Below, piece after piece: positions 3,863-29,142 of a stretch of 35,404 nt of DNA. Under the pieces are notes generated by a model, which saw only the letters and a program-made list of their open reading frames with translations, searched no databases and had not been told where the DNA came from. The position numbers were made by a program, and so were the translations under genes. The stretch's first letter is position 1. The number at the start of each line of letters is the position of its first letter. This DNA is from a virus (lineage: Duplodnaviria > Caudoviricetes): positions 1 through 35,404 of the IMG/VR virus record IMGVR_UViG_3300017766_001853, one strand, 5' to 3'.

Positions 3863-4242
3863 CCACCTATGACTTCGGTGACGGTGCTGGCCCTGTTGCT
3901 GCACACCAGCACGCCAACGGCGGCGGCTGGGTAGCAGACACGGCGGTCGTCGACGATGCCGTGTGGATCGACGCTAGTGCCAAGGTCTACGGTAACGCGT
4001 GGGTCTGCGGCGACGCGTGGATCTACGAGTCCGCGCAGATTCGAGGCAACGCCTTCGTGGATCACGAAGCGCAAGTGTTCGGCAACTCAACCGTAGAAGG
4101 CACAGCCAGGATTGACGGCGAGTCCCGTGTGTACGACACAGCCATTGTGCGTGGTACAGCCGAGCTGTATGGCTGCACCTTCATCGGCGGCACAGCCGTG
4201 GTGGAGGAAGGGATCCTTAGAGACGAACAGAGGACATCATGA
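3859..4242 (+). CDS. Hexapeptide-repeat left-handed beta-helix protein
   Basis: GGWV motif followed by 6-residue repeats (AKVYGN AWVCGD AWIYES AQIRGN ... AQVFGN STVEGT ARIDGE SRVYDT). ATGA overlap. Confidence 0.85.
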   Translation: MTTYDFGDGAGPVAAHQHANGGGWVADTAVVDDAVWIDASAKVYGNAWVCGDAWIYESAQIRGNAFVDHEAQVFGNSTVEGTARIDGESRVYDTAIVRGTAELYGCTFIGGTAVVEEGILRDEQRTS

Positions 4243-5154: not shown

Positions 5155-6981
5155 ATGCCGATCCGCTACAACCAAAACCAGGGCAGTCGCTACCAAGACG
5201 AAGACGACCAGCTGCTAGGCATGTTCTTTGGTGGACTTGCCCAGGGACAGGCGTCTTACGAGCGTGCCAAGGATCGCCGCTTAGAGCAGGACTACCGCAA
5301 CAAGCAGTACGACCTGGCCAAGACTTCTGCGCAGGACGAGAAAGACTACCGGCAGTCCATGCTGACGGAGGCAAAGGAGGGCAGGAAGTTTGAGGAGAGC
5401 TACAAGAGGGACCTCTACAAACTAGAGGAAAACAAGACCAACGCCGCTATTGCTGCCAGCAACGAGGCCCTGGCGGTCTCCGGACTACAGCGCCAGGAGG
5501 CTGGCCTCAAGCTGGGCGAGACCACGCGCCAGATCGACCTCGGCAAGGCAGGTACAGAGGCTGAGGCGCTAGCGGCAGAGATCGCAGGCAGGGCTGCGTC
5601 TATGCCGTACGGCATGGATTACGACTACACTTTCAGCAACGATCAGATCATGTTGATTGACCCTGTAAACGGTCAAAAATACATTGATCACCGCGACAAG
5701 GTTCTCTCCGAGATCACATCCGTTGCAGCACGGATGAACCAGGCCAATCCGAATACTCGCCCTGGCGATGCGTTCATGCTGCAAATGCAGCAGGCCAACG
5801 AAAGAAACGACGCCCGAATCACAGAGGCGCTGTCTAAGAACCAGTGGAGCGCCTTGTCCACCGACACTATGTTTGGCGCTAATCCGTTTGGTCCAAGCGC
5901 AGACGGCAAGCCGCAGCAGCCTAGCCAGATGCAGGAGTGGTACACCACCACTAACGCCAAGGTCCAGTCGGGCGCTCTGTCCTACAAGGACGCCATGCTC
6001 GAAATGGCGCAGAAGCGCAATGAACAGATTGCCTACCAGGGCAAGCTCCAGACGCGTTCTAACTTCCAGGAAGACCTCGTTGCTGAGATCACTAGTCTTC
6101 GCTCTGCCCTCCCAAGCCTAAAGGGCGCGGCCAAATTTATGGCACAGCGGCAGGCATCGCAAATGACCGGCATCCTTGCCGAACTGCAATACACGACTGA
6201 TGCCGATATTGCTGGGCTAGCCAAAAAGTTTGGCGATATCGTTGGCGGTCAAGGCCAGGTTGAGTTTGGCACTGAAGCGCAGAAGTTTGCAAGCGACAGG
6301 CTCACTGCGCTGGAAGGCCAAGTTACACCAGAGGCTCAACGCGAGCGCGCACAGATCTTTGGCATGGTTGCCCAGACGCCTGGATTTGAAGGCCTTGGAC
6401 AGGCAGAGGGCGCGGACCAAGGCACTCCGTTTGCGCAGGCTGGAGCTGCGTTTACCCAGTTTATGGGCTTGGGCGGTCAAGCACCCGCTGGCCCCGCCGT
6501 CCGCACAGGCGATGGGTCTGTTGTGCCCGGTGGCGGCACACCCGAGACGCCGCCCGTTCCCAAAACGCAAGACGAACTCGACATTGAGCGTAGGCAGCAG
6601 CTCATCAACGAGCGTTTCAAGGCGTACGAAGCAAACAAGACTCCTGCCAACAAGAAGGCCCTCAGAGATGCAGAGGCGGAGCTGGATAAGTTCAAGTCTC
6701 AGCTTGGGGATGTAGGTAAAGTCAAGAAAGACCTAAAGTCCACCGCCAGTTCATTGGGCGGGGATTTCGAAGACTACGCAAACGTATCAACCAAGGAAGA
6801 CTACCTTGCCGCGCTAGATGCCGCGCAGTCAGAGTTTGATTCCATTCCGCAGCCGACGTACTCGGCAACTGGTCGCCCCTCTGGCGGTCCAACAGAAGAA
6901 CAGGCTATCAGGCGCGGGAAGCTGAAAAAGTTCATCCAAGAATTGAACGACCTCGCTCGGATCAAGAAGTTCGAAGAGTAA
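5155..6981 (+). CDS. Probable ejection/internal virion protein 2
   Basis: 608 aa, helical and Q/A/E-rich, N-terminal FFGGLAQG then charged coiled coil. Assigned mainly by position. Confidence 0.55.
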   Translation: MPIRYNQNQGSRYQDEDDQLLGMFFGGLAQGQASYERAKDRRLEQDYRNKQYDLAKTSAQDEKDYRQSMLTEAKEGRKFEESYKRDLYKLEENKTNAAIAASNEALAVSGLQRQEAGLKLGETTRQIDLGKAGTEAEALAAEIAGRAASMPYGMDYDYTFSNDQIMLIDPVNGQKYIDHRDKVLSEITSVAARMNQANPNTRPGDAFMLQMQQANERNDARITEALSKNQWSALSTDTMFGANPFGPSADGKPQQPSQMQEWYTTTNAKVQSGALSYKDAMLEMAQKRNEQIAYQGKLQTRSNFQEDLVAEITSLRSALPSLKGAAKFMAQRQASQMTGILAELQYTTDADIAGLAKKFGDIVGGQGQVEFGTEAQKFASDRLTALEGQVTPEAQRERAQIFGMVAQTPGFEGLGQAEGADQGTPFAQAGAAFTQFMGLGGQAPAGPAVRTGDGSVVPGGGTPETPPVPKTQDELDIERRQQLINERFKAYEANKTPANKKALRDAEAELDKFKSQLGDVGKVKKDLKSTASSLGGDFEDYANVSTKEDYLAALDAAQSEFDSIPQPTYSATGRPSGGPTEEQAIRRGKLKKFIQELNDLARIKKFEE

Positions 6982-6984
6982 GCC

Positions 6985-9900
6985 ATGCAACAACAAAGCC
7001 CCTATCACGGACTCAAGAACCTCGACGATGCAATGGCCGAGGGCATGGAGCGCTTCCAGTCTGTGTCGCAGCGCTTCCGCGACCTAGCGGACATGGGGGC
7101 CGACCAAGCCACCGTGCAGCGTGAGGCTAAGCGCCTTGGCTATGCGCCCATTGCTGCGGGCCAAGACGGCAAGATGGTGGACTACACCGACATGGTCACG
7201 CGCCGCGCTGACATGACGGTAGGCGAGCACTTGCAGGACGTAGCGGCTGGCTTTGGTAGAGGGCTTGCTAACCTGCCTGCTGACGTTGCCAGCCTCGCGG
7301 CTATTCCGTTCCAAGCTGCTGGGTACGACGGCGTGTCCAACTTCGCCAACAAGTACCGCGAAGGTGTAAACGAGCTTATCCCTACAAGCAACAAGTACCG
7401 CACCTCCATCGCCGAGCAGGTAGGCGGCGGTCTATCCACAATCGCTGGTGCGGCTGCTGGTGGCGCTGGCCTTGCCCGTCTTGGCGTGAAAGGCGCGACG
7501 GCTGCTATGGCCTCTCGCGGGCTTACGGGCGAAGCTCTAGCCGCTGCACAGCGTTCTACGTTTGCCTCGCTGGCCGCCAAGAAGTCGTTGCAGCTAATGA
7601 CCGTCCAGGGCGCTGGCGCTGAGGCTGGCGCTGCGCAGGCCGCAGGCGCGGGAGCGGGCGCAACTATCCTTGCTGCCGCTGGTGGCGCTGCCACAGCACA
7701 GCTAGAGCGATTTGGCTCGGTGAAGATCCTCGGCGAGATCTTTGGCGCTGGATCGCAGGCTGCTGGCCGGATGACTGGCGGCAAGGCGCTCAAGAGCGTT
7801 GCCGGTGGTTTTGCTGGTGAGATTGGTGAAGAAGTTGTTGCCGCCCCCATCTCTACTATTGCCAGAAGCGGATACGAGACAGACCCGTTCTCCAAGAGAC
7901 TTCAGCAAGAACTAGAGGGCACGCTCAAAGTTGCCCCGTTGGTTATCCTGCCGTTCACAGCGGTTCACGGAATCCGCGCATCCCAGATGGTGCGCCGCGA
8001 CAACGAGCTCGCCAAGGCACTGCCTAGCAAACTTGCTCCAAAGCTAGAGGGCGTTGCTGAGGGCCAGATTCTTGATCGTCAAGTTCGCACCGTGGATGAG
8101 ATCCGCGCTGACAACCCCGAGCTTGCTGATCAGCTAGAGCGTGTCGGCGCTCGCATTTCCGGCCCTGACGGCAAGCCCGTCAAGCTCAACTCCAGCTCGG
8201 CGGCGACGCAGCGCGTTCAAGCGCTTGGCGAGGCAATTACCGAAAGCGGCGCTCGCGTTGTGTACTTTGAGCCGGAAGGCGAAGACGCTGGAGATGTTGC
8301 GGGGTTCTACGACAAGGACACTGCGACCATCTTCATCAACAGCAAGCAGTCCGAGAACGTGCAGATCATGCAGGGCATGTTCCACGAGCTGCTGCACGAC
8401 ATCTATCAGGACAGCCCTGGCGGTCTCACGCAAATCCACGAGCGGCTTCAGCAGGCGTTTGGCGACAACTACACCAAGTTCATGCAGAAGGTGGCCAACA
8501 CCTACAAGGACCAGAAACTTACAGAAAGCGAGATGACCGAGGAGTACGTCAACAACTTCCTCGCCCAGGCCATGCCTGGCTACATGGCCATGGCTGTCAC
8601 GTCTAAGGACATGTTCAAGATGGCGGCATACCGCGATCCTGGCTTGGTCTTTGACATCTCCAGAATCCTGTCCAACTTCCTTGGACGGTCTATGGACAAG
8701 TACACCCAGCGCGAACAAGCCATCTTGGCTCAGCGCATGGAGAACATCGCCAACGAACTCCAGGGCGACTTCGCCATGGACCCCAACGCAGCTGTCAAGG
8801 TAGATCCCATGACGGCTGTTCGCGTAGCTGGCGAGGTAAGCGCCGCTATGCAACAGGCGCTAGAACTGCGCTCGCAGGCTATCCCGGAGATTCGCCGCGC
8901 TCTGGAGAATCCCGATGTAGAAGTGTCGCCTGAGGGCGTTGTCAGAAGGCCTGTAGCTGTTGAACGTACCGGCGGCGGCGGTGTTGGCGGCATGACGTTC
9001 AGCGACAGACTTGTGTCGTCTAGCGTTGCCTCGGAAGGGGTGAACGACATGGCCAGCAAGCTGTATCCGGGACGCACTGGACCCAAGCTGGCAAGCGATG
9101 TCTACGAAGTGGTAGATGACCCCACAGCGGAGGGGGGCGGAACCAAGCTGCGCAAGATTGCAAGCGCGGGGGATGAGTACACTCCGCAGATTGCGGCTGA
9201 CGTAAAAGACGCAGTATCCCGCGATGCTTTGTACGGCGAAGTCAAGTTCGACAGCAATGACATCGTAATCAACCTTGCCAAGCGTGTGATGCGCTTGGAT
9301 ATCCCTGCTCAGTACCGGGCGCTTGGACGGGCTATCCAAAAGGTTGCTGAATCAACAGATCGCTTTGCTGGAGCCGAAGCTGATGTTGGCGTAGACGCAG
9401 AGGCAGGCGGCGAAGCCCTGGCCGCTCAGGTTGCTCAGCTGCAAGAGCAGCTGAAGTCTCGGAAGTCTCTACCTGCTGGCTCGCCGGAGCGACGCGCCGT
9501 GCAAGCCCAGCTTGATGTCATCCGCGAGCGCTCTAATGCCTACCGCCGACAAACCGCCGCTAGGTCTAGCGAGGAAATCAGAAAGCAGTCAGAGCGGGTA
9601 AAAGACATCGTCTCCAAGATGCTGGCCGCTGAGGCCATCGTCAAGTACGGCCAGGACTACAGCACGCTCACGGACGAGCAGAAGAACCTTGTCCGCATTG
9701 ATGCCGAGAAGCGCCTCGCTGGCTTCACTGGCGTAGACGACCCCGGCTCCATGCGCATGCCGTTCATGCGCGACACGTCAGCTTTCCGTCGTGGCTTCAA
9801 TCCGGAGCGTGCAGCCAAGCCTTTGGAACAGCGCGGAGAGGAAGCATCTTCAGAGGCTGCCGCACTGGCTACGGCTCGACGCGAAGCTGAGTTTGAGCGT

Positions 9901-12900
9901 GAGTACTCTGCGCTTGAGCAGGAAGAGAAGCTGCAAGGCATTGCTCGGGAAGAAGAGCAGGCTCGCCAAACAGAGCTTGCGGCCATTGCCAAGTACGAGC
10001 AGCAGTTTGCTGAGATGGAGCGTGAGGAGGCACAGCGTACGGCGGACATTGCTGCCGAAGAGCTGGCCATCATGCAGGAGATGTCCAAGGAGGAGGCCAA
10101 GCCTCTGTCCGAGCGCCAGGGGCTTTCTGACCAGCAGAAGGTTGCCATGTACCTGATGGCGCGGGAAGTCATCCCGACGCTCATTGCGCAGCGCAAGCGC
10201 CTGCCCCGTAACCAGCAGCCGCCTAACCTGCGTCAGGCGCTGAAGGAGTACTTTGCGCTAGAAGACGAGTTGCGCCGCAAGTACCCGGATGCTGAAGACT
10301 GGAAGCGCAAGCGCCTAGGAAAGCCAACTCAGCCGTTCCAAAAGCCTACACCCCGTAAGGATGTAGCCCCCAAGAAGGGCGAGACGGCTTTGCAGGCTGA
10401 GATTCGTGGCAAGTACGGCTCGGACCTGGAAACGCTGGGCGAAGAGCAGCGACTGTTGGCCGACTCACGCAAGGCAATCGCGTCCATCTTCAAGGCAGTC
10501 AAAGACAAGGCTGACCTTCCGCGCAACGTTGGAGCAGGAGCATTCGCTCCAGTTGCTGAGTTCAGCAAGCGAACCGCCGGAGCCCGATCCACGACTGGGG
10601 GGCAGCGCCAAGCGCCGTTTACATCCGTCAACGGAAGAAGCCTGGAAGACATCGCGGCGGAGATCTACACAGACCACACGGCTGCGCAAAAGCTCCGCAA
10701 GAACCGTGGAGACAAAGTGCAGGTTGCACGCCTAGAAGCAAAGGTCGCCGACAACCTGAAGCTGCTTGATCGCATCTCCAACACGCAGAAGGCGCGCATC
10801 AACAAGATTAGCGACATCAAGCGCGAGGTGCGAGCTAAGTCTGGTATCGCAGCTCCAACCTTTGGGCGCGACAAAGCCAAGCCTGCCGCCGCCACCGAGG
10901 CTGCCCAGCAGCAGCCTGCGCAAGAGCAGACTCAGGCTCAAGAGCAGGCTGAGACTAAGCCCGCTGAGGCTACTGAAACACAGCAACAGCAAGAGCAGGA
11001 GCAGACGCAGGAACAAGAGCAGCAGACCGTCGAGTTTGACCCTGAGACGTTTGAGCCTAGCGATGACGCCCTGGAGGTTTTGTCGTCCGAGCCTACTCTC
11101 AATGAGGCATACCGCGCAGCAGTAGCCGAGGCAGGAAACGAAGGCCTTGCATTCTTCAGCGGCTACTTGCCGCAAGACGCAAGTGACAAGCAGATGGACG
11201 CGATGGAGGTCCTGCGGGAAAAGTACGAAGAAGGCGTGCAAGAATTTGCTGACGCAGCCGACATTCGCCGCATTCTGTATACAGACCAGCTTGCAAAGCC
11301 ACCCGAATCAGTCGTGGCCTACCGCGTTGACACCACTTCTGGTGTCCCCGAGATTGATGTGATTGCCGTAAACGTGGTCACCGGAGCAGTTCGCCTTGTG
11401 CCAAGGCAGGAAACTGCTGACCACGTTTCCAAGCGACCCGACGCAGAGGTTGAGCGCAGCTTCAATATGCGCCTAGAGGGACTACTGGAAGACTATCGCC
11501 GCGAAACCCGTGGCGAGCGCCAGCAGCAACAACAGCAGGACGAGGAAGGCGACGAGGAAGCGCCAGCCCCTAGCGCCTCTGTAAGTCCACTGGAAATCCC
11601 AGGCATGCAGCCGATGGAGGTGTTTTCCTTCGGCGGTCGCGTCATGGCCGTAATTGACATTGACGGGCAGAAGGTTCCGTTCTACAGAAGCTCTGGAAAA
11701 AACAAAAAGCCTGGCGTATCAGGCGGCCTCTGGTACCCGTTCATGGGAGTGACGGCGTCAGAGAACGGTGAAGTTACATGGATTGCCAAAACCAGCGACG
11801 TTGGGAACTTCTACGGAATTGAAAAACTAAAGCAGGCCGCTGAGTTCTTGAACAACAAGTACTCAATGGAAGCCATGGCGGATGACTCGGTCCCCAACGT
11901 CGCAGCGGAGGGCATGAAGGCCGGTGTTCACAAGACTGGGAAGAACGCCAAGACGCGCACCGCTGAGTACCTAAACTCCCTTACCGGGTATGGGATGGAT
12001 TACCATCCAAGCCGCAAAGACAAGGACGGGGACCAGAAGTTTACTGATTTCTCCAAGCAGTACCTGTCGCGGCTTTCACAGGCTTTGTCAGCCCAGAAGC
12101 CAGCCCCTGCGGCGGCTAGAACCGGCGTCCCAACTACCGCAGAAGAACAAATCCAAGCCGGCATTGACTTCCTTGGCAACGAGTCTACGGCTGGAAGGAC
12201 GGAGCTGTACATCAAACTGCCACAGCTCGCCTCTATGGCGTCTGTTGTCCCGCTTCCTGGGTTTGGTCCGTCGTTTATCCGTGTCCCATCTGGTCCTGAT
12301 GGCAAGCCCATGAAGATCGAGGTGATGTACATGCTGATCAACTGGGGATCAATCACCCCATCGCACACATACAGCCAAGGAAAATTCAGAAAGAACAAAG
12401 ACGGCGACATCAACGAACGCCCGTACGACGATCCCGAGGCGGGCAAGAACTTGCGCCGCGACTTCGAGGCCAACCTCGAAAACTTTGACCCGGCGTTTGT
12501 TTTGTCCACGGACAACACCGCAGTCAATGGCCCGCCTGTAATCACAGCACGGGGCGTTGTCCTGGGGGGCAACTCTCGCGCGATGATGTTGCAGTCCCTT
12601 AGCCGTGAGCAGCGAGATGCGTACGAAAAGGCGCTCAAGGACACTGTCTCGTCTTTGCCGTATTTTGCTGACAAGGAGTACAAAGACTTTGATCCGTTTG
12701 GTGGCACGGTTCTCGTCCGCGTCATCAAGCCTGGTCAGCAAGGCAAGCCTGGCGAGCTGTCTCCGTTCCTCAACGAGTCGTTCACTGCCAGCCGCGAGGT
12801 CAATGCACGCGCCACTTCGCGGGGCGCACGCCTCAAGCCCGAGACTGCATCCCAGCTTTCCAATGTCATTGGCGACCTGACCATGCGAGGTGCCTTGGGC

Positions 12901-15900
12901 GTGCCTAACAAAAGCGTCGAAATCCAGCAGTTGTTGTTGGGCGACGGCGTGTTCACTGAACGCGAGCTTGATGCCTTGCGCGACAAGAAGGGCCAGCTTA
13001 CGGACCAGGGCCGCTCAGAAGTTGAGATGGCCGTGCTCGGCGCTGTCGTTAACGATGTGCGCGTCATGTCTGAGGTCGAGCCCAGCACGATGCAGAAGAT
13101 CGTTGGCTCAGTTGCCCCGCTCTTGCGGATCATGGCGGCGGACCCGTCATCCCGCCAGTCCATCGAGAACGCTATCGACGTGCTGAACTACATGAAGGCC
13201 AACGACATCAGGCTCGACGAGCTTGATCGTCAGCAGTTTGCCTTCACAGATAAGCAGGCCTGGCGCGACGACCAGCTCGCCAAGGATCTTGCGGCCATTA
13301 TGAGCCTCGGCAAGCTGAACGCCGCCAAGGCCCTTTCCCGCATCGCTGTCGAGGCTGAGGCTGCTGGCACCAACCAGGGCGACATCTTTGCTGTTATCGA
13401 GCCCGGCAAGCCCAAGCTAAGCGCAGCCGAGACTGTGCGCGAAGAAGCCCGCCAGATCAACAGCCGCGATAAGGATGAACGCGCTGGAGAGGCCAAAACA
13501 CAGAGCGGCTTCAAGCCCATCTTGTCTCCGTCAGAAATCCCTGAGGGCTTGAACCTAGACCTGGACATCAACATCCAGCAGCTGACAGACATGGCTCGTT
13601 CCTATGAGGCGCAGACAGACCCGCTGGTCAAGTCGGCAATTGAGTCCCAATACAACCGCCTCGCCAACCTTATCATCAAGAAGGTCAAGGATGCCCAGGC
13701 CAAGAACAAGGACAAGTTCTTCAAGCCTCTCTACGAATCCGTCATTACCAAGGTCACCCAACGCGCCAACGTAGCTAACCACCCACGCCTAGGCGATGGC
13801 CTGGCCAAGAAGGGTGGCGGCGATGTCATGTTCAGCCGTCGGCTCGTGGAGACGGAAGACGAGCGCTTGCTGCGACTCGCTACACGCAAGCCGGAAGAAC
13901 TGCTGCGCGTGTCGTCGTCCACCGAGCAAGGCCGTCGTGAAGGCGCTGGCGCTGTCGGCTTCTTGAACTCTGTCTACGAGAACGCTGTTGACGCCGAGGC
14001 CGCGCTGCGAGAAGTCGAGCGCAAGATCTCTGAGTCAGCTGATGCCCAGGCAAAGCTCATTGCTGAAGGCAAGCTGCCTGACGACGTGGAGCGCTACAAC
14101 TACAACAGCGCCAAGCATGCTGTTAGCGACATGCTTGACCTGTACCGTGGACGTATCGGCGAGAACAACAAGATCGCCATGCAGTTCCGGCAGGACATGA
14201 TTGATGCCGCCAAGAAGCACGGCATCCCCATCACGCCTGAAGATGCTGCTGACACGGACATGGTCAGCGCAGAGGACTACCTGTACGCTACGCACGCAGA
14301 AGAGGCAAACAAGGCCATTGCGTATGACCGCGCAGAGGAGCGGTTCGACAAGTCCAAGCGCGGCAAGGACATCAAGAAGGAGATCCGCAAGCTGCGTAGC
14401 TTTGTCGTTGGCGAGCGCGGCAAGTCCAAGCGCGACGATGGCAAGGACCCGGACTTCGACAAGATCGACGAAGCGCTGGCCAAGATTCAAGAGCTTGAAG
14501 CTGAGCGCGATGCGGTGGTGAAGGGTGAGGTTGACAACTCCTACGTCCAAGCCAAGGCCGCTAAAGCAGAGATTGCCAAGCTAGAAGCTGACATCAAGCT
14601 GCTTCCCAAGGACTCCTCTGCGCGTAATCGCCTGGAGGTTGACCTCAAGGAACAGCGTGACCTGTTGGCTGAGTCGACCAAGGATCACTCTGGCTCCGGC
14701 ATGACGGACGAACAGGCCAGGGAGATCCTTGACCGCGTCAACAAGTCGCCTGAGGGCACAAAGCTCAACGGCGCGATTGCTGGCTACAAGGACATTCGCA
14801 CGGCTATGACCGGCTTGCAGGCTGCGAAGCTCAAGATCCAAGTGGACTCGGGCCTCGTCGACCCTGACACGGCGGACAAGTGGCGCGAACGGTATGGCCC
14901 CAACTATGTACCGCTGAAGAGCACGATCCGCCCGCCTGATGGCAACGGGTTTGGCTCTAGTGGATTCAGCATCAAGGGCAAGGAGACCGAGTCCCGTAAG
15001 GGCCGCGCTACCTTGGCTGATGATCTGATTGGCCACTCACTGGTTGACTTCTCGCACGCTAACAGCCGTGCCATGAAGAACCTGGTGATGAACTCGTTTG
15101 TACGCTTGGCTGAGTCAAACTCCAAGCTGAGCATCTGGACCGTTGTCGGCACACGCAAAGACTGGGAGAAGGGTCTCAAGAGCGGCCTGTACGACGAGCG
15201 CGACAACCGTCGCATTGTGTCGGTCAAGCGCACTCAGACCTATGAGGATCCGTTCACTGGCGAGCTTGCAACTCGAACCACTGAGCGCATCGTCTTGGTC
15301 AACGACGAAGGCCTTGCGCGAGCCCTCACGCAGATGGACGGCATCGACATGGGCTCGTTCACGGCTGGTGCGATTCGCGCTACGCGATTGTTCACCAAGA
15401 TGCAGACGGCATGGAACCCTGCGTTCATCCTGCCGAACTTTGCTCGTGACGTGCTGTTGGCTGTCGGCATCCGCTACACAGACAACGGCCTCGGTGCCTC
15501 GCGCAGACTCGTTGCCAACATCGTTCCCGCTCTGCGCACCATCCTGGCCGTGGAACTGGGCAGCACAGCTATCGGCAAAGCTCTTGGCTTTGACAAGATG
15601 AAGGCTGGCAAGTTTGACCTGGAGTACCGCGAGCTTCGCAACCTAGGCGGCTTCTCCAGCCCCGTCGATTACGGCACCGTGACAGAGCAGATGGATCGCC
15701 TCCGCAAGGAATCGGCCCGTCCTAGCAGCGTCTACGGCAAGGCTGTTGAGTCTCAGCGTAATGCAGCCAAGAACCTGTTTGAGTTCGTGGAAGCCATCAA
15801 CACGGTCGTTGAGCGGGCCACGCGCTTGGCTGCATATGTCGAGTTTGACGAGACGATGGCTCAGGACGCAGCAACTTCCGGCAAGCGCTACATGCGCGGG

Positions 15901-17070
15901 TCAGAGAAGATCAAGCGTGCTGCCGCCACCAAGAACCTGACGGTCAACTTCGACCGCCGTGGTCGCGCTGGCCACATCCTGAACTCGCTGTATGCGTTCT
16001 ACAACGCAAACGCCCAGGGTACAGCCAACTTGATTCGCCGCGTTGGACCTAGCGCAACGCCCGAGCAACGTATGCGTGCAGGCATCGCCATCGCGTTCCT
16101 GTCTACGGCAGGCTACGCCATGTCGCTGCTGGCTCGCGCCATGGGCGATGACGACGAGCAGGGCGAAGAGGCATACAAGGGCCTCGCTGCCGACGAGCTA
16201 CAGAAGAACATGGTCATCATGTTGCCTGGAGCCAAGAGTTCCAGACTGACAGTGCCCCTTCCCTGGGGTATGAACATGGCCTATTTCGCTGGCGTTCAGA
16301 TGGAGCGACTGGCCTCTGGCCAGATTGATGCACAGACAGCAGCCGAAGAGTACACAAGCGGTTTGCTTGGCTCGTTCTCTCCGATCACTGGCCCCACTGC
16401 ATCGCTGGCCATCGTGCCGACGCTGGCTCGTCCGTTCGCGGAAATCACTGCGAACATGAACTACGCTGGCAACACGATCATGCCGCCTGTTGACCCGTAC
16501 GATAAGACGCCTCTGCCTGACAGCCGTCGCGCCTACCGTACTGTTGGTGCTCAGTCCCGTTGGGTGGCTGAGACTCTCAACGACTTCACTGGCGGAGACG
16601 AGCGTACGTCAGGCATCATCGACGTGTCGCCCGAGTCCATCGAGCACATCGCCGAGTTCATGTCTGGTGGAGCTGGCCGCTTCGTGCAGAACGCATTCGG
16701 CCTTGACCTGTCCCGCGAGGAACGCCAGATCCGCGACATCCCCGTTGCCGGTGCTATTGCCGGTCGCTTCGTGCGTGAGTCCGACACCAACCAGCGGACC
16801 ATCACCGAGTACTACGCCAACACCGACAAGGTGGCTCGCCTGCGCGAGGACCTCAAGGACCCACGCACCAGATCCGAGTCTATGTCAGACCCGCTCCGTG
16901 CTGTTGACCGCTACGCCACGGCCATCGAGGGCAAGCTACGCAAGCTCAAGGACGCCGAGCGCCGCGCTCAGAACTTTGGCAACGCAGAGATGGTGAAAAA
17001 TCTGTCAGCTCAGCGCATCCAGCTGATGCAAAGCTTCAATCGCCGCTACAATCAAGTCTCCGAACGCTGA
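6985..17070 (+). CDS. Large polyvalent protein (3361 aa), probable major ejection protein
   Basis: Ala/Gly hydrophobic N-terminus; AGFYD...IFIN...FHELLH...EE zincin-like region (HELLH at 8383-8397); GPPVITARGVVLGGNSRAMML ddrB/ParB-like motif (~12300-12830); LPD38-like C-terminus (NLTVNFDRRG...LYAFYNANAQG...VPLPWG...PFAEITANMNYAGNTI). Confidence 0.8.
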   Translation: MQQQSPYHGLKNLDDAMAEGMERFQSVSQRFRDLADMGADQATVQREAKRLGYAPIAAGQDGKMVDYTDMVTRRADMTVGEHLQDVAAGFGRGLANLPADVASLAAIPFQAAGYDGVSNFANKYREGVNELIPTSNKYRTSIAEQVGGGLSTIAGAAAGGAGLARLGVKGATAAMASRGLTGEALAAAQRSTFASLAAKKSLQLMTVQGAGAEAGAAQAAGAGAGATILAAAGGAATAQLERFGSVKILGEIFGAGSQAAGRMTGGKALKSVAGGFAGEIGEEVVAAPISTIARSGYETDPFSKRLQQELEGTLKVAPLVILPFTAVHGIRASQMVRRDNELAKALPSKLAPKLEGVAEGQILDRQVRTVDEIRADNPELADQLERVGARISGPDGKPVKLNSSSAATQRVQALGEAITESGARVVYFEPEGEDAGDVAGFYDKDTATIFINSKQSENVQIMQGMFHELLHDIYQDSPGGLTQIHERLQQAFGDNYTKFMQKVANTYKDQKLTESEMTEEYVNNFLAQAMPGYMAMAVTSKDMFKMAAYRDPGLVFDISRILSNFLGRSMDKYTQREQAILAQRMENIANELQGDFAMDPNAAVKVDPMTAVRVAGEVSAAMQQALELRSQAIPEIRRALENPDVEVSPEGVVRRPVAVERTGGGGVGGMTFSDRLVSSSVASEGVNDMASKLYPGRTGPKLASDVYEVVDDPTAEGGGTKLRKIASAGDEYTPQIAADVKDAVSRDALYGEVKFDSNDIVINLAKRVMRLDIPAQYRALGRAIQKVAESTDRFAGAEADVGVDAEAGGEALAAQVAQLQEQLKSRKSLPAGSPERRAVQAQLDVIRERSNAYRRQTAARSSEEIRKQSERVKDIVSKMLAAEAIVKYGQDYSTLTDEQKNLVRIDAEKRLAGFTGVDDPGSMRMPFMRDTSAFRRGFNPERAAKPLEQRGEEASSEAAALATARREAEFEREYSALEQEEKLQGIAREEEQARQTELAAIAKYEQQFAEMEREEAQRTADIAAEELAIMQEMSKEEAKPLSERQGLSDQQKVAMYLMAREVIPTLIAQRKRLPRNQQPPNLRQALKEYFALEDELRRKYPDAEDWKRKRLGKPTQPFQKPTPRKDVAPKKGETALQAEIRGKYGSDLETLGEEQRLLADSRKAIASIFKAVKDKADLPRNVGAGAFAPVAEFSKRTAGARSTTGGQRQAPFTSVNGRSLEDIAAEIYTDHTAAQKLRKNRGDKVQVARLEAKVADNLKLLDRISNTQKARINKISDIKREVRAKSGIAAPTFGRDKAKPAAATEAAQQQPAQEQTQAQEQAETKPAEATETQQQQEQEQTQEQEQQTVEFDPETFEPSDDALEVLSSEPTLNEAYRAAVAEAGNEGLAFFSGYLPQDASDKQMDAMEVLREKYEEGVQEFADAADIRRILYTDQLAKPPESVVAYRVDTTSGVPEIDVIAVNVVTGAVRLVPRQETADHVSKRPDAEVERSFNMRLEGLLEDYRRETRGERQQQQQQDEEGDEEAPAPSASVSPLEIPGMQPMEVFSFGGRVMAVIDIDGQKVPFYRSSGKNKKPGVSGGLWYPFMGVTASENGEVTWIAKTSDVGNFYGIEKLKQAAEFLNNKYSMEAMADDSVPNVAAEGMKAGVHKTGKNAKTRTAEYLNSLTGYGMDYHPSRKDKDGDQKFTDFSKQYLSRLSQALSAQKPAPAAARTGVPTTAEEQIQAGIDFLGNESTAGRTELYIKLPQLASMASVVPLPGFGPSFIRVPSGPDGKPMKIEVMYMLINWGSITPSHTYSQGKFRKNKDGDINERPYDDPEAGKNLRRDFEANLENFDPAFVLSTDNTAVNGPPVITARGVVLGGNSRAMMLQSLSREQRDAYEKALKDTVSSLPYFADKEYKDFDPFGGTVLVRVIKPGQQGKPGELSPFLNESFTASREVNARATSRGARLKPETASQLSNVIGDLTMRGALGVPNKSVEIQQLLLGDGVFTERELDALRDKKGQLTDQGRSEVEMAVLGAVVNDVRVMSEVEPSTMQKIVGSVAPLLRIMAADPSSRQSIENAIDVLNYMKANDIRLDELDRQQFAFTDKQAWRDDQLAKDLAAIMSLGKLNAAKALSRIAVEAEAAGTNQGDIFAVIEPGKPKLSAAETVREEARQINSRDKDERAGEAKTQSGFKPILSPSEIPEGLNLDLDINIQQLTDMARSYEAQTDPLVKSAIESQYNRLANLIIKKVKDAQAKNKDKFFKPLYESVITKVTQRANVANHPRLGDGLAKKGGGDVMFSRRLVETEDERLLRLATRKPEELLRVSSSTEQGRREGAGAVGFLNSVYENAVDAEAALREVERKISESADAQAKLIAEGKLPDDVERYNYNSAKHAVSDMLDLYRGRIGENNKIAMQFRQDMIDAAKKHGIPITPEDAADTDMVSAEDYLYATHAEEANKAIAYDRAEERFDKSKRGKDIKKEIRKLRSFVVGERGKSKRDDGKDPDFDKIDEALAKIQELEAERDAVVKGEVDNSYVQAKAAKAEIAKLEADIKLLPKDSSARNRLEVDLKEQRDLLAESTKDHSGSGMTDEQAREILDRVNKSPEGTKLNGAIAGYKDIRTAMTGLQAAKLKIQVDSGLVDPDTADKWRERYGPNYVPLKSTIRPPDGNGFGSSGFSIKGKETESRKGRATLADDLIGHSLVDFSHANSRAMKNLVMNSFVRLAESNSKLSIWTVVGTRKDWEKGLKSGLYDERDNRRIVSVKRTQTYEDPFTGELATRTTERIVLVNDEGLARALTQMDGIDMGSFTAGAIRATRLFTKMQTAWNPAFILPNFARDVLLAVGIRYTDNGLGASRRLVANIVPALRTILAVELGSTAIGKALGFDKMKAGKFDLEYRELRNLGGFSSPVDYGTVTEQMDRLRKESARPSSVYGKAVESQRNAAKNLFEFVEAINTVVERATRLAAYVEFDETMAQDAATSGKRYMRGSEKIKRAAATKNLTVNFDRRGRAGHILNSLYAFYNANAQGTANLIRRVGPSATPEQRMRAGIAIAFLSTAGYAMSLLARAMGDDDEQGEEAYKGLAADELQKNMVIMLPGAKSSRLTVPLPWGMNMAYFAGVQMERLASGQIDAQTAAEEYTSGLLGSFSPITGPTASLAIVPTLARPFAEITANMNYAGNTIMPPVDPYDKTPLPDSRRAYRTVGAQSRWVAETLNDFTGGDERTSGIIDVSPESIEHIAEFMSGGAGRFVQNAFGLDLSREERQIRDIPVAGAIAGRFVRESDTNQRTITEYYANTDKVARLREDLKDPRTRSESMSDPLRAVDRYATAIEGKLRKLKDAERRAQNFGNAEMVKNLSAQRIQLMQSFNRRYNQVSER

Positions 17071-18322: not shown

Positions 18323-18583
18323 TCAGTTGCTGGAGCCCGCAACGAGCGGCTGAAGCGAACTATTGCAATGCAGCAAGGTCTTGCGAACCTCGTCGCTGGC
18401 TCCGTTCATCTTCGACGCTTCCAACATCTCGTCCATGATCTTGCCAACGCGGCGCAGCACTCGTGCTTTCTCGCGGTTGTCAAGCTTAGCAAGACGATCA
18501 GCCAGTTCCTTGCGGCGCTCCTCAGCGCTACGACGACGGCGGGTCTTCACGACAACGCCATCGGTGGTGGTAATGTTAGTCAT
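18323..18583 (-). CDS. 86-aa Arg-rich coiled-coil protein, possible nucleic-acid-binding regulator
   Basis: ATG 18583 lies 6 nt after a consensus -10 box. KTRRRRSAEERRK motif. Flanked by its own promoter and terminator. Confidence 0.7.
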   Translation of the reverse strand: MTNITTTDGVVVKTRRRRSAEERRKELADRLAKLDNREKARVLRRVGKIMDEMLEASKMNGASDEVRKTLLHCNSSLQPLVAGSSN

Positions 18584-18589
18584 GCGAGC

Positions 18590-18618
18590 ACTATATGTAG
18601 TGTAATCGTCAATGTCAA
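18590..18618 (-). promoter_or_regulatory. Sigma70-type promoter for a leaderless mRNA
   Basis: Minus strand TTGACA-17nt-TATAGT-gctcgc-ATG. Confidence 0.8.
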
Positions 18619-18623
18619 TACAC

Positions 18624-18656
18624 AAAAAAGTAGACCCGGCTCACAACCGGGCCTAC
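18624..18656 (-). terminator. Intrinsic terminator of the putative sRNA
   Basis: GTAGGCCCGG-TTGTGAG-CCGGGTCTAC-TTTTTT. The single imperfection is a G-U pair only on the minus strand. Confidence 0.85.
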
Positions 18657-18740
18657 CGACCAGAACAGACAACAGACTGAAGGCTCGCAACCTTCCTGAC
18701 CTATCCGAGCAGGGCTCACAACCCCCTCCAACTTTCCAAC
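18624..18740 (-). ncRNA. Putative phage small RNA with three hairpins sharing one loop motif
   Basis: Promoter TTGACT-17-TACAAA upstream. Three GG-TTGYGAG-CC stem-loops with different outer stems (18711-18725, 18679-18695, 18630-18656). The last is followed by T6. Confidence 0.7.
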
Positions 18741-18746
18741 GCGCAC

Positions 18747-18812
18747 TTTGTACTACGCCCCTGCAAGTTAGTCAATACAGATATTGACTTTTTTCTTATC
18801 GAAAAGCACCAT
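18747..18812. promoter_or_regulatory. Back-to-back divergent promoters around palindrome GTCAATA-caga-TATTGAC
   Basis: Minus: TTGACT (18770-18775)-17-TACAAA (18747-18752). Plus: TTGACT (18784-18789)-17-CACCAT (18807-18812)-6nt-ATG of the helicase. Confidence 0.65.
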
Positions 18813-18818
18813 GTGTGT

Positions 18819-20216
18819 ATGACTACCAGACAACACGGTGACCCTAAAGCCGAGAAGGACTTGCTTGGACTACTCATCAACTCGCCGCACCTCATCTCTG
18901 AGGTGTCGGAAGTCGTGTCCCCTTCGCACTTTACAGGAGACAGGGGCAAGCTGGTCTACGAGGCCATGCTGGCGCTGCACGGCAACGGCCAGATCCTAGA
19001 CTTCTCGTTGCTGTGCGACGAGCTAAACTCGAACGGCACGCTCAACAAGGTTGGCGGCAGGGCTGAGATTGCGGCTCTTGCTGGCAGGTACACCAACGAT
19101 GCGTTCATGGGCCACCTTGCTGGCCGCATCAGAGCACACGCTGCCCTGCGTGACCTTGGAGCTGTTGCGTCCGAGCTGCTGAACGAGAGCCAGTCGTCCA
19201 AGCCCGAGGAGTCGTCCATCCTCGACTTGGTGGACAAGGCGCAGGCGAAGCTCTCAGACATCATCTCATCAAACAAACAAGATGACGTCGGTGAAGCCTG
19301 CACCGAAATCGCATCCGTAGCCGAGATGCTGGTCAAGCCTAGGTCGTCCTCCATGCAGGGCGTGCCCACTGGCTTCCTTGACCTAGACGATGTGTTGTGC
19401 GGCCTGCGCCCCGGGCAGCTTGTCCTGTTGGCTGCTCGCTCTCGCGTCGGCAAGACTAGCCTCGCCTGCGACATCGTGAGGCAGGCCGCTACGGACAACC
19501 GCACCGTTGTATTCTTCTCCTTGGAGATGACGCGCCAGGAGATCTGGGAGCGCATGATCAGTGGGCAGGCTGGCATCAGCCTTCACGACATGCGGATGCG
19601 CGAGGCCACCGACGAGGAAAAAAATAAGGTCTCGTACGCTGCATCAGAGTTGGCGTCAATGTCGATCATCGTGAAGGACACACCCAACACGACGCCGCTT
19701 TCCATGCGAGGCTTCTCGCGCAAGATCATCAGCCGCAAGGGGAAGATCGACCTCATCGTGGTTGACTACCTACAGTGCATCCAGTCCGGCAAGGACAGGC
19801 AGTCGCGCTACGAGCTTGTTAGTGATGTGTCTCGCCAGATGAAGGTACTTGCCCGCACGCTGAACGTGCCTGTGCTTGCGCTGGCACAGCTAAACCGCAC
19901 GGCAGAGGACGAAGAGCCTCGCCTGTCGCACCTGCGCGAGTCAGGCGGCCTAGAGCAGGACGCTGACGTTGTTCTGCTGCTGAACAGGCCGCATGTGTTT
20001 GACAGCGAGAAGGATCCGACACTTGCAACTGTCGACATCGCCAAGCACCGCAACGGGCCGTGCCAGATGATCAACCTTCACTTCGAGGCTGGCAGCGTGA
20101 GTTTCAGGAACAGGGCTCCGAAGATTGAGGACTTCAGCAAGGTCTCGCAGGACTCGCCAGTGGCACCGCCTAGGAAGAAGAAGACCAACTGGTACGAGAA
20201 CGGACAGTTCGACTAA
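18819..20216 (+). CDS. dnaB: Replicative DNA helicase, DnaB family
   Basis: N-terminal AEKDLLG...F domain; motifs AARSRVGKTS, FFSLEM, IVVDYLQ, LAQLNR, LRESGGLEQDADVV, IAKHRNGP. Confidence 0.97.
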   Translation: MTTRQHGDPKAEKDLLGLLINSPHLISEVSEVVSPSHFTGDRGKLVYEAMLALHGNGQILDFSLLCDELNSNGTLNKVGGRAEIAALAGRYTNDAFMGHLAGRIRAHAALRDLGAVASELLNESQSSKPEESSILDLVDKAQAKLSDIISSNKQDDVGEACTEIASVAEMLVKPRSSSMQGVPTGFLDLDDVLCGLRPGQLVLLAARSRVGKTSLACDIVRQAATDNRTVVFFSLEMTRQEIWERMISGQAGISLHDMRMREATDEEKNKVSYAASELASMSIIVKDTPNTTPLSMRGFSRKIISRKGKIDLIVVDYLQCIQSGKDRQSRYELVSDVSRQMKVLARTLNVPVLALAQLNRTAEDEEPRLSHLRESGGLEQDADVVLLLNRPHVFDSEKDPTLATVDIAKHRNGPCQMINLHFEAGSVSFRNRAPKIEDFSKVSQDSPVAPPRKKKTNWYENGQFD

Positions 20217-24079: not shown

Positions 24080-24234
24080 TTGCTTGGCCGATGATGTTTG
24101 CTTGCTTAGCCGATGATATTTGTACACCGCGTAGCGCGTGCGCGCAAGTGCGCGTGCGCGTGCCCGCATGTACGCGAGGCCCCCTAACGCCCAGCTATAG
24201 GAATAAAGCCTACGCACATTAGCGTATAGGAATA
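24080..24234. repeat. Cluster of direct repeats and an alternating purine/pyrimidine tract
   Basis: TTGCTTRGCCGATGAT at 24080 and 24102 (22-bp period); GCGCGTGC-type tract 24134-24163; TATAGGAATA at 24196 and 24225. Confidence 0.75.
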
Positions 24235-24338
24235 TCTTCGCCGATTGCCATGATCTGCACATCGACGAGCCCGACATCGTTGTCGTGCTTGCCGTTCTCA
24301 CAACCAGACCGACCGATATCAAAAACAGACAGACAGCT

Positions 24339-25403
24339 ATGACAACCCAGAACCCGAACCCCTTCAGCGGCCTCGATCAGTACATCCGTAGCGTAGCCGA
24401 GAGCGTTGTGGAGTCCACGATGGGCGAAACGACCAAGGCCATGCGTACCAACGACCTCGACATGCCTTCCCGCAGTCGTGAGTTTATCCGTCAGGAACTC
24501 GCCAGCATGGCCGACTCGACCCGTGCGGCCCTTGTCGAGGGGACAGCGAACGCCGCCCGCCCGTACACGGCTGGCGTGTCGCCGCACTTCGTTGAAACCA
24601 CTACGGCCAAGTCTATTCGTCGCGCCATGGCCACGGCCAAGGCTGCCGACCGTTGGCTTGTGATTGTGTCCGGCCCCGCCGGAACTGGCAAGACCTTCCC
24701 CGCGCTGCAAGTCTCCCTCCGCACTGGCCGCCCCGTCTACCCCGTCGAGATCAGCGAGGCCACCACTCTGGACGACCTCTTTATGCGTCCGTGGGTGACT
24801 GGCCCGTCCACGATGGGCTGGGTGGAGGGCCCCGCAGTCCGCGCTGCACGCGAGGGCGGTATCCTTCTTCTGGATGAATGCGACCTAGCCAGTCCGCGCT
24901 TGATCGGCGGCCTTCACGGCTTGCTTGAGTCTGGACAGACCCGTCTGCGCTCAGGTGAATGGCTTCAGGCGCATCCCGACTTCGTGGTGATTGCCACCTG
25001 CAACGGCCTGCGGAGCAGCAAAGGCACCTATTCGACGCACTCGATTAGCACGGCCTTCGCCGACCGCGCCGTGTTCGTCGCTGCCGACTACCTGCCCGAG
25101 GCCGACGAGATCGCTATCCTGTCGCGCTACGGCTCCCCCGAAGCAGCCGCAGATACGCGCAGCGACCTTGTTGTCCTGCGCCGGATGTTCGAGGCTGGCG
25201 GGCTTCGCATCGCCCCGTCTACGCGCCGTGGGGCCGTTGTGGTCGCGGCCTTGGCCGCTGGTGCCAGCCGCGCCGATGCTTGGCAAATCGCTATGGTTTC
25301 GGGCTTGGACTCGAAGACTGCCGAGGAAGTAGGCCGCCAGCTAGCCGCCGCAGAAACGGCCCGCCAGTTGTCCGTCCCGACCGCAAACGGTGTCCTCCCC
25401 TGA
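24339..25403 (+). CDS. MoxR-type AAA+ ATPase (CbbQ/NirQ/NorQ/CobS-like)
   Basis: Walker A GPAGTGKT, Walker B ILLLDE, WVEGPAVRAAREG, HPDFVVIATCN, AFADR. Confidence 0.92.
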   Translation: MTTQNPNPFSGLDQYIRSVAESVVESTMGETTKAMRTNDLDMPSRSREFIRQELASMADSTRAALVEGTANAARPYTAGVSPHFVETTTAKSIRRAMATAKAADRWLVIVSGPAGTGKTFPALQVSLRTGRPVYPVEISEATTLDDLFMRPWVTGPSTMGWVEGPAVRAAREGGILLLDECDLASPRLIGGLHGLLESGQTRLRSGEWLQAHPDFVVIATCNGLRSSKGTYSTHSISTAFADRAVFVAADYLPEADEIAILSRYGSPEAAADTRSDLVVLRRMFEAGGLRIAPSTRRGAVVVAALAAGASRADAWQIAMVSGLDSKTAEEVGRQLAAAETARQLSVPTANGVLP

Positions 25404-25424: not shown

Positions 25425-26843
25425 ATGACGAAGAGAAACAGGTACAAGAGTCACAAGAAGGCCAGAGGATCGTGGTGGGACTCTGCCGCGCTATGGGAAT
25501 CCGATGACAGCTACGGCGAAACAACCTCGTGGCTGGACAAATGGGACGGCTCCGAGTTCAGGAAGAGCCGTCATCGCATCAATGACGGCTTGGTCAAAGA
25601 AGCAGGTGTCGCCGCAGCCGCAACCGTGCATGCCGCGCTCGACCGTAGAGCTAAGGGCCTGCACATTGAGGGCATTGACTCCTACATCATCGCCACAGCC
25701 AAAGCATGGGGTGGTGAGAAGTTCAGTACCGTGGCGTACGACCGCGCGCTTCGCAAGTACGCAGAACAGTCTGGCAAGGACTGCGGCCTCAAGGGTAAGG
25801 CACTCGAACGGCACACGGACGGATTCGCCGCCAGTGCGGCCCTCGACCTCTTGACGATTGACCAATGGACGGCCTTCGCCAAGTACTACATCCCCGACAG
25901 CTCTAACGGTGCTCCTATGATTGCGTCCGCAATCAAGAAGGTAGCTTCCGATACGATGCAAGCATCGAACGGAACGGGCCACCCGTCCACCGACCGCCGT
26001 ATGAATCAGGCCGTGCCGGACGCGACTAACGCAGACGATGCTTATTACGCAGAATCTGACGAGAAAGACAGGGCTCTATCGGCCAAGACCGGGTTGCGTT
26101 ACGACAAGATCGAGGCAAGGGAGCGCATCGACCTGTCCGGCTTCCGTGCTTCGGCGCAGTATCTAGCCACCGCTCTGGAGGACAGCCGCCGCGAGTACCT
26201 CCTAAGTGAATGGTCTGGTTCTCGCCTTGGTAACGATGCAGCCCTATGGGCCAGCGGGGCGAGCTTCTCGCCCTTCGCCGAGCCTGACATGATGCTGGGC
26301 GGGTTGTGCGATGTTCTGATCTTGGTCGATGCATCGTCCTCTACCATTGACGACGAGAAGACGAATGTGATCTTGTCCACCGTGGCGCACGACTTCGCTG
26401 TTGCGCTTCGCGGGGCCGGACACGGCGCGGCTGTTGTGCCGTGGTCCCACTACAACGGTGGCCTATACAACCGAGAAGGGGCAACGCTCTGGAATGATCC
26501 GATTGACAGCGGCAACTGGCCCGTATGGGGCTGGGGCGGAACTGGCTTGGGTTGTGCAACAAGGGCGGCCCGCATGGCCTTCTCGTTGTGCAGCTCCGGC
26601 AAGAGGCGCAAGATCGCTCTGATCTTGACGGACGGACATACGAATGGCCGTCCTAATGAAGGCGATAGCCGCTCCTATTGGAACTTCGGTTCCGATCTTA
26701 GCGTTCTCTGGGCCGTTGGCCGCTTCGCTAAAGTACCCGACGACTGGAGCGGTCCGAGCCTTCACAGTCTATCGTCTCTGACGATGATGGACGACTTGCT
26801 CGCATCCGATGCGGTCAGGTATCTCTCCGGCCTTAGCCACTGA
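25425..26843 (+). CDS. von Willebrand factor A domain protein, partner of the AAA ATPase
   Basis: MIDAS elements ILVDASSS, GGT and LILTDG in the C-terminal half; directly follows the ATPase. Confidence 0.85.
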   Translation: MTKRNRYKSHKKARGSWWDSAALWESDDSYGETTSWLDKWDGSEFRKSRHRINDGLVKEAGVAAAATVHAALDRRAKGLHIEGIDSYIIATAKAWGGEKFSTVAYDRALRKYAEQSGKDCGLKGKALERHTDGFAASAALDLLTIDQWTAFAKYYIPDSSNGAPMIASAIKKVASDTMQASNGTGHPSTDRRMNQAVPDATNADDAYYAESDEKDRALSAKTGLRYDKIEARERIDLSGFRASAQYLATALEDSRREYLLSEWSGSRLGNDAALWASGASFSPFAEPDMMLGGLCDVLILVDASSSTIDDEKTNVILSTVAHDFAVALRGAGHGAAVVPWSHYNGGLYNREGATLWNDPIDSGNWPVWGWGGTGLGCATRAARMAFSLCSSGKRRKIALILTDGHTNGRPNEGDSRSYWNFGSDLSVLWAVGRFAKVPDDWSGPSLHSLSSLTMMDDLLASDAVRYLSGLSH

Positions 26844-26917
26844 TACACATACAACTACAATCCAACACAACTACGACCCGACTCAACAACACGCCTGGCT
26901 TAGCTGGGCACAAGACA

Positions 26918-28682: not shown

Positions 28683-29142
28683 CATGACAGACCACCAAGT
28701 CGGAACCAGTCGTGCTCGACGATATCGCAGGCTTGCAGGCCGGACTGGATCGGTGGCGGATGGAGAGGGGGAAGAGGGACAGGGGGATCGGTGGTGGTTG
28801 ACGGCCTGTTGCCACGAGGGCCGTCCCCGTCGACCAGCTCGCGCTTGGCTCGACTACGGGAAAAAGGCTTGCCTAACAACCCCCAAAAAAATTTCCAGTC
28901 TTTCCCTCTCTATTTCTTTCCTACTATCCTGTTGTGTTCTTTGTTTACGGAATACCACTATCGTGGTATGCGTTCTTTATCTATAGTTGTGTGAGAGTGT
29001 GTGGCTAGTACACTCCCCCTCCAAACTGGGGGACCCTACTGGGGGCTCGGTGTATCTTAGCTCCAACGTACATTCAGCACTACCCTATCCCCCTACACAC
29101 CCCCTCTAAAAGAGGGACCCATCAGGAAAGCTACTCCCCGCC

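Follow-up and report, generated by a model that had tools for sequence, protein, structure and literature searches.

A predicted small RNA of an uncultured freshwater phage complementary to the start region of a CobS-like AAA+/vWA gene pair

An uncultured freshwater phage, represented by a 35.4-kb virus record (hereafter the window, meaning the whole 35,404-nt stretch analyzed), carries a predicted minus-strand small RNA gene whose transcript is complementary to the start region of a CobS-like AAA+ gene. We lean modestly toward reading it as a trans-encoded antisense RNA that would block translation of the CobS-like AAA+ gene and its vWA-like partner, given the observed promoter-like boxes, three hairpins, terminator, complementarity and synteny. 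Counting against this reading are the rank of the AAA start in the window (6th of 1300 sites), a weak match in one relative, the lack of a good AAA promoter in the window, and a sample of three phages.

The phage, its relatives and the predicted RNA gene

The window encodes a terminase, an SU10-type portal, a DnaB helicase, a RecE-like exonuclease, an annealing protein and an AAA_5/CobS-like ATPase. Among public sequencing runs, freshwater metagenomes are the best holders of its sequence, and none of the holders listed is an RNA run. At 6985-17070 this phage, which has an SU10-type portal, encodes a polyvalent-type protein of 3361 aa that carries LPD38 and ddrB-ParB domains. Both loci of interest are present in three independent phages: the window, G001 and G004. 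A further record is identical to G004 over their shared length, and other viral scans returned known records or this identical copy; G003 (locus L117) has the AAA leader but no helicase region, and served as a cross target only. Neither a tyrosine integrase nor a resolvase was found in the window and two relatives (0/3 records each, all three possibly incomplete).

Searches for additional relatives added little. A single AAA query of viral contigs returned none, and no relative was found in species genomes searched with recE and terminase profiles. A pattern describing the linker and terminator detected 32 loci, with G001 as the only clade member, and a metagenome scan that covered 2 of 64 parts gave 24 distant loci. 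A two-loop DNA pattern gave 3 loci in viral contigs, none of them accompanied by genes of the window's clade.

The predicted RNA gene and its neighbors are as follows:

18624-18740, minus strand: predicted small RNA of ~117 nt, with its 5' end placed from the -10 box
18747-18775, minus strand: predicted small RNA promoter, -35 TTGACT (18775-18770), 17-bp spacer, -10 TACAAA (18752-18747)
18707-18728, minus strand: predicted hairpin 1, loop UUGUGAG, with a G-U pair that forms on the minus strand only
18679-18695, minus strand: hairpin 2 of the predicted fold, loop UUGCGAG
18657-18678, minus strand: G/U-rich linker, the predicted seed, pairing with 24305-24338 (duplex -24.9 kcal/mol before opening costs)
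18624-18656, minus strand: predicted intrinsic terminator, 10-bp stem, loop UUGUGAG (18646-18640), U6 tail
18784-20216, plus strand: DnaB helicase gene, ATG at 18819, divergent from the small RNA, predicted promoter TTGACT-17-CACCAT
18326-18618, minus strand: 85-aa gene 3' of the small RNA, with its own promoter TTGACA-17-TATAGT and homologs in G001 and G004

We predict that 18740-18624 is a stand-alone promoter-to-terminator unit, as predicted in each of the three phages examined. The downstream 85-aa gene has its own near-consensus promoter, and we therefore read the RNA as independent of that gene and not as its 5' leader. The terminator is the top terminator-like site of the region scanned; the small RNA promoter is unlisted by our consensus scan, which requires a T at position 6, and its boxes were instead read from the sequence. 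Predicted folding energies are -45.1 kcal/mol for the minus strand (z = -2.66) and -24.4 kcal/mol for the opposite strand; a slightly longer cut of the locus gives z = -1.52. All three hairpins carry a loop of the form UUG(U/C)GAG, with heptamers at 18640, 18684 and 18715, a feature that the earlier note had overlooked. The word CTCRCAACC occurs four times in the genome, always on the forward strand: at the three RNA loops and in the AAA leader at 24297.

Between the small gene and the helicase, G001 and G004 likewise have promoter-like boxes on the minus strand, followed by hairpins and by a terminator in the corresponding position. The promoters occupy the same place (TTGACC-17-TATCAT in G001; TTGACG-17-TACATT in G004), and the syntenic units measure 123 nt (z = -6.08) and 115 nt (z = -3.77), respectively. 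The three RNA loci share no short reading frame. The window locus matched no covariance model of Rfam 15 up to an E value of 1, Rfam at locus L112 gave sub-threshold matches to unrelated families only, ARAGORN detected no tRNA, and blastn against 50,697 phage records returned short chance pieces only. The system had been proposed as undescribed; the predicted RNA is a new family insofar as Rfam holds no match, but the mechanism it would use is already of a known kind.

Three near-identical loops within one RNA also invite a different explanation, namely that these hairpins, with 5-bp stems and 7-nt loops, are decoys for a host protein, for instance anticodon-loop mimics that soak up a tRNA-cutting defense nuclease. 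The loop centers GUG and GCG presumably resemble His and Arg anticodon loops. Yet the loops of the window are conserved in neither G001 nor G004, ARAGORN sees no tRNA, and the match to the AAA leader would be left unexplained; we regard decoys as extremely improbable.

In both the window and G004, 8 bp separate the back-to-back -35 boxes of the small RNA and the helicase. Expression of the RNA had been thought tied to the helicase promoter; the promoters do adjoin, but their layout suggests promoter competition or a shared operator and not simple co-expression. In the window these divergent -35 boxes together make up a perfect inverted repeat of 8 bp around a 4-bp center (18770-18789). Separately, the helicase (18819) and 85-aa (18583) genes have a -10-like box 6-8 bases before their ATG in 3/3 phages. 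This spacing makes both genes look leaderless, the helicase mRNA probably being so, and gives a clue to the host.

Complementarity to the AAA start region within the window

The putative target operon and its leader comprise the following features:

24339-25403, plus strand: AAA_5/CobS-like ATPase, 354 aa, the predicted target (PF07728, E 1.6e-21; phrog_249, E 3.6e-36)
25425-26843, plus strand: vWA-like partner, 472 aa, with a MIDAS-like DASSS motif visible in translation
24297-24305, plus strand: leader block 1, CTCACAACC, complementary to the loops and the sole CTCRCAACC outside the RNA gene
24308-24336, plus strand: leader blocks 2 and 3 (ACCGACC; AACAGACAGACAG), C/A-rich
24342-24347, plus strand: fourth colinear block, ACAACC, at +4 to +9, in the best predicted duplex

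The AAA ATG (24339-24341) is in frame with the open reading frame 24285-25403, and homologs begin at the same methionine. The leader is predicted to be mostly unpaired (mean unpaired probability 0.76) and lacks a GGAG-type motif. A Pfam search of the 472-aa protein gave no match. Its nearest Atlas clusters are VWA/CobT_C, with scores of 0.92-0.94 on low feature counts, and are a lead only; the TM values against these neighbors are under 0.5 by query, with a poor model. Downstream of the vWA gene, 26843-26917 is a C/A-rich intergenic tract with CAAC repeats, and is not among the top matches for the RNA. Upstream, a run of GCGC-type short palindromes lies at 24125-24180 between the divergent 182-aa and AAA genes, and similar tracts precede the AAA gene in G003 and G004.

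The earlier note had described three colinear blocks shared by the two loci, and by sequence these lie exactly where it placed them: CTCACAACC at 18640-18648 and 24297-24305, ACCGACC at 18655-18661 and 24308-24314, and AACAGACA at 18664-18671 and 24324-24331. The fourth block, directly after the AAA ATG, had been overlooked. A caution that the blocks lie partly in the terminator stem is borne out, with block 1 comprising the terminator loop plus two stem bases and block 2 overlapping the stem foot.

Watson-Crick local alignment of the RNA with the AAA start scores 21 (29 identities in 40 columns). Only one of 3511 genome windows reaches this score, the AAA start itself, with the runner-up locus at 18.5; none of 1000 shuffled leaders and none of 1000 shuffled RNAs do so. 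The RNA and the AAA leader share 44 5-mers, a count reached by 0/1079 other windows of the scan. As the pair was originally chosen post hoc, genome-wide ranks and the relatives outweigh these shuffles.

When opening costs are included, by a simplified seed-and-extend model and not by IntaRNA, the energy at the AAA start is -15.1 kcal/mol, the 6th of 1300 sites genome-wide on both strands. Among start regions it ranks 1st of 29, with the runner-up at -13.1; such ranks take gene starts from a crude caller, to which the AAA start of G001 was added by hand, and cover phage genomes only. The expectation that pairing energy would exceed that of randomized controls is borne out in part: 3/300 RNAs with permuted loops and linker reach -15.1 kcal/mol, but 24/300 fully shuffled RNAs also do. 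Part of the energy thus comes from composition and the remainder from letter order. A duplex scan without accessibility was uninformative, the AAA start being absent from the best 26 windows listed.

Two further sites were observed in these scans. At 18827-18835 (+9 to +17) the helicase mRNA likewise complements the linker at 9/9 positions, and the helicase ranks 3rd of the 29 start regions. The genome's best predicted site for the RNA 5' end is 28866-28905 (-20.2 kcal/mol), a low-complexity stretch downstream of the AAA-vWA cluster and away from called starts.

Full colinear pairing of the two loci amounts to -41.0 kcal/mol before opening costs and requires an opened terminator. This requirement would fit a reversed direction of control, whereby the AAA leader, as a trigger or sponge, would pair into the 5' arm of the terminator during its synthesis and cause read-through into the 85-aa and 121-aa genes; the 14-mer match of G001 (below) also abuts the stem. 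However, the best accessibility-corrected duplex keeps the terminator intact, the G001 match scarcely enters the stem, and the gene downstream has its own near-consensus promoter; we regard reversed control as very improbable.

In the window, no credible AAA promoter was found within 300 bases: the best site scores 3.8, which is background for a matrix trained on the same genomes that were scored (432/211,800 positions exceed it), and would place the transcription start downstream of blocks 1 and 2.

Conservation and divergence among related phages

G001 is 51% identical to the window in the AAA protein and 60% in the helicase, and the nucleotide loci have diverged (72/130 identical columns in the RNA, 35/63 in the leader). 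At a site fixed in advance, the G001 linker and the AAA leader of the same phage match at 14/14 positions; this 14-mer abuts the terminator stem. By accessibility energy the G001 AAA start ranks first of 834 sites and first of 40 starts, at -21.1 versus -11.4 for the runner-up. The same energy is reached by 2/300 shuffled RNAs and 0/300 loop/linker-permuted RNAs; by plain alignment, the AAA start is tied with three other loci. A consensus promoter with its -10 box ending at -67, identified with the same self-trained matrix, places the match inside the predicted AAA 5' UTR.

Several features of the G001 module stand beside these results. A second 14/14 match, to the 5' hairpin arm of the G001 RNA, lies at 6600-6613 (L008), near the end of the vWA gene. 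Clusters of TAGG-N7-CCTA palindromes flank the G001 AAA-vWA module on both sides (3766-3975 and 8551-8608); the window has one such palindrome (24198-24212) and G004 none. They may be operators or recombination sites, the AAA-vWA module being inverted in G003 and G004.

The 5' end of the G004 RNA has 12 possible pairs over the AAA start codon, and GUCA-type words recur in single-stranded parts of the RNA, facing three TGACC words of the leader. When a 7-bp seed is required, however, the AAA start yields no site among 422; among starts it ranks 5th of 26, its energy is reached by 101/300 shuffled RNAs and its alignment score by 245/2078 windows. The G004 match is weak and is counted as not confirming. 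Synteny in 3/3 phages and the independent top rank in G001 support a separate minus-strand RNA gene and its complementarity to the AAA start; the contribution of G004 is limited to its weak match.

The weak G004 match is one of several observations that would fit a broad regulator, which uses its G/U-rich seed on C/A-rich starts of host mRNAs, the helicase and other phage genes, and for which the AAA leader is one target or a by-product. Same-composition shuffled RNAs match the window energy in 24/300 cases, five sites outscore the AAA start, and the helicase 5' end is matched 9/9 at 18827, 3rd of 29 starts. A comparable case is GcvB, described as silencing ACA enhancer motifs on several mRNAs (PMC3879156). 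Set against this, the AAA start tops the start regions of the window and of G001, with a wide lead in the latter, and the loop 9-mer has no other genomic copy beyond the AAA leader. A broad regulator is possible but unlikely.

Co-variation between RNA and leader was assessed across the three phages. Each RNA shares the most 5-mers with its own leader (44/22/11, 54/29/17 and 15/9/4; n = 3), although this k-mer statistic was picked after the repeated word of G004 had been seen, and the G004 result is given little weight: it is reached by 11/637 windows and 7/2000 shuffled leaders, and at 6-mers the signal vanishes (88/637). Cofolding is also best on the own leader (-24.8 for the window, -31.8 for G001, -9.3 for G004; n = 3), with small margins of 2.4 in the window and 0.8 in G004. 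In cross pairs, the window and G001 RNAs each rank the other's AAA start first, and the window RNA scores -14.6 on the G001 leader versus -15.1 on its own. These near-equal values indicate that much of the signal is a conserved repeat and not compensatory change. We read the pattern as conserved complementarity founded on an ACAG/GAC repeat, to which each lineage has made its own additions, and not as clean compensatory change.

The word CTCRCAACC is absent from the AAA region of G001 (L008), and none was seen in the relatives' RNA loci. This counts against an alternative in which the shared words do not pair as RNA but are sites in double-stranded DNA or protein-bound motifs for one regulator, or the relic of a leader duplication. 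Both copies do lie colinear on the same strand, block 1 of the window overlaps a weak promoter-like site, and the locus sits between two promoters beside DnaB, where repeats could serve as an origin or operator. But in the window the repeats fall within the loops and linker of a promoter-terminator unit whose G-U pairs form on the minus strand only (-45.1 versus -24.4), and a neutral relic is not expected to retain the 14/14 match of G001 while both loci diverged. We consider DNA sites or a relic quite improbable.

Variants of the window in public runs add a second leader type. In runs X3, X5 and X11 the RNA locus has few changes, but the AAA leader, which lies on other contigs, differs too much to be aligned, and this counts against the antisense reading; the change 18704 T>A is the one inside the RNA locus among the 40 of 525 difference rows listed. 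X14 has the same replacement of the AAA leader, over 168 letters, and X4 keeps the window type. The AAA module thus exists as a second allele in X3, X5, X11 and X14, with a P0002-like start (24190-24354 and beyond) and a mosaic boundary at ~24189-24227.

Proposed mechanism and comparison with known systems

If the RNA is a trans-encoded antisense regulator of the AAA+/vWA pair, its transcription would start at a host sigma-70-type promoter that adjoins the helicase promoter in the opposite orientation. Its G/U-rich linker would seed on the unstructured ACAG-repeat leader (-15 to -3) and extend to ~-34, and an RNA loop could add contact at CTCACAACC or at ACAACC (+4 to +9). The resulting duplex would cover a start region without a Shine-Dalgarno-type motif, and so block initiation. 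Repression of the AAA gene would also reduce the vWA-like gene, probably via coupling, and the likely purpose would be to limit or time an early AAA+/vWA remodeling module as replication begins.

Several systems already described resemble this proposal in part. 24B_1 of the Stx phage Phi24B, a proposed repressor of d_ant, has in common with the window RNA a phage origin, a gene distant from the phage target proposed for it, and pairing that is short and imperfect (PMC12197685). In contrast, the window RNA is predicted to have its own promoter and terminator and a length of ~117 nt without sign of processing, and its target would be an AAA+/vWA pair, not an antirepressor, in phages whose three possibly incomplete records show no tyrosine integrase or resolvase. 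C4 of P1/P7, which RNase P releases from a longer transcript, functions in immunity and lysogeny, with two loops contacting the ribosome site and an upstream element (PMC5320573). Like the RNA predicted here, C4 has three stem-loops and several unpaired elements that complement a start region, one close to the ribosome site and another upstream, and these elements differ between related phages (PMC5320573). Unlike C4, the window RNA is predicted to be a free-standing gene with a linker as its main seed, its layout suggests a primary transcript, and it has no Rfam C4 match.

GcvB likewise pairs upstream of the start with C/A-rich ACA sequence, and the AAA leader is ACA-rich (PMC3879156); GcvB is host-encoded and multi-target, whereas the window RNA matches no Rfam family. 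OOP, sar, aQ and sas are phage RNAs that repress phage mRNAs by pairing (PMC12197685), but these are cis-antisense and overlap their targets; the window RNA lies 5.6 kb from its proposed target, not opposite it, and pairs imperfectly, and the cis-antisense class was rejected. For phage MoxR/CobS-type AAA+ proteins with a vWA co-chaperone, a role in virion assembly has been proposed (PMC7824862). The adjoining AAA_5 ATPase and vWA-like genes of the window resemble such pairs (PMC7824862), though here the pair lies among non-structural genes and is inverted in G003 and G004. Among the literature titles and abstracts searched, none deals with the window RNA or with a small RNA that controls an AAA+/vWA pair in a phage. 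In the parts of a review consulted, few trans-acting phage RNAs are described that have a phage target, and these concern lysogeny control; the RNAs there that act on phage genes are for the most part antisense RNAs (PMC12197685).

A more far-reaching proposal, which we hold to be distinctly unlikely, is that in these phages without a detectable integrase the multi-loop RNA is a lock and the co-drifting repeated word of the AAA+/vWA start region its key, in an RNA-based kin exclusion aimed at the chaperone pair. If so, the RNA would time or restrain a host-remodeling ATPase module, and would also silence, in an allele-specific manner, the module of closely related superinfecting phages while sparing diverged ones.

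The predicted pair of RNA and target in the window is precise and has natural variants, and phage CobS-like AAA+/vWA pairs are widespread. If trans-antisense control is borne out, such pairs would need tight translational control, suggesting that their activity is timed or costly, and the window would provide a rule for finding RNA-target pairs in uncultured phages.
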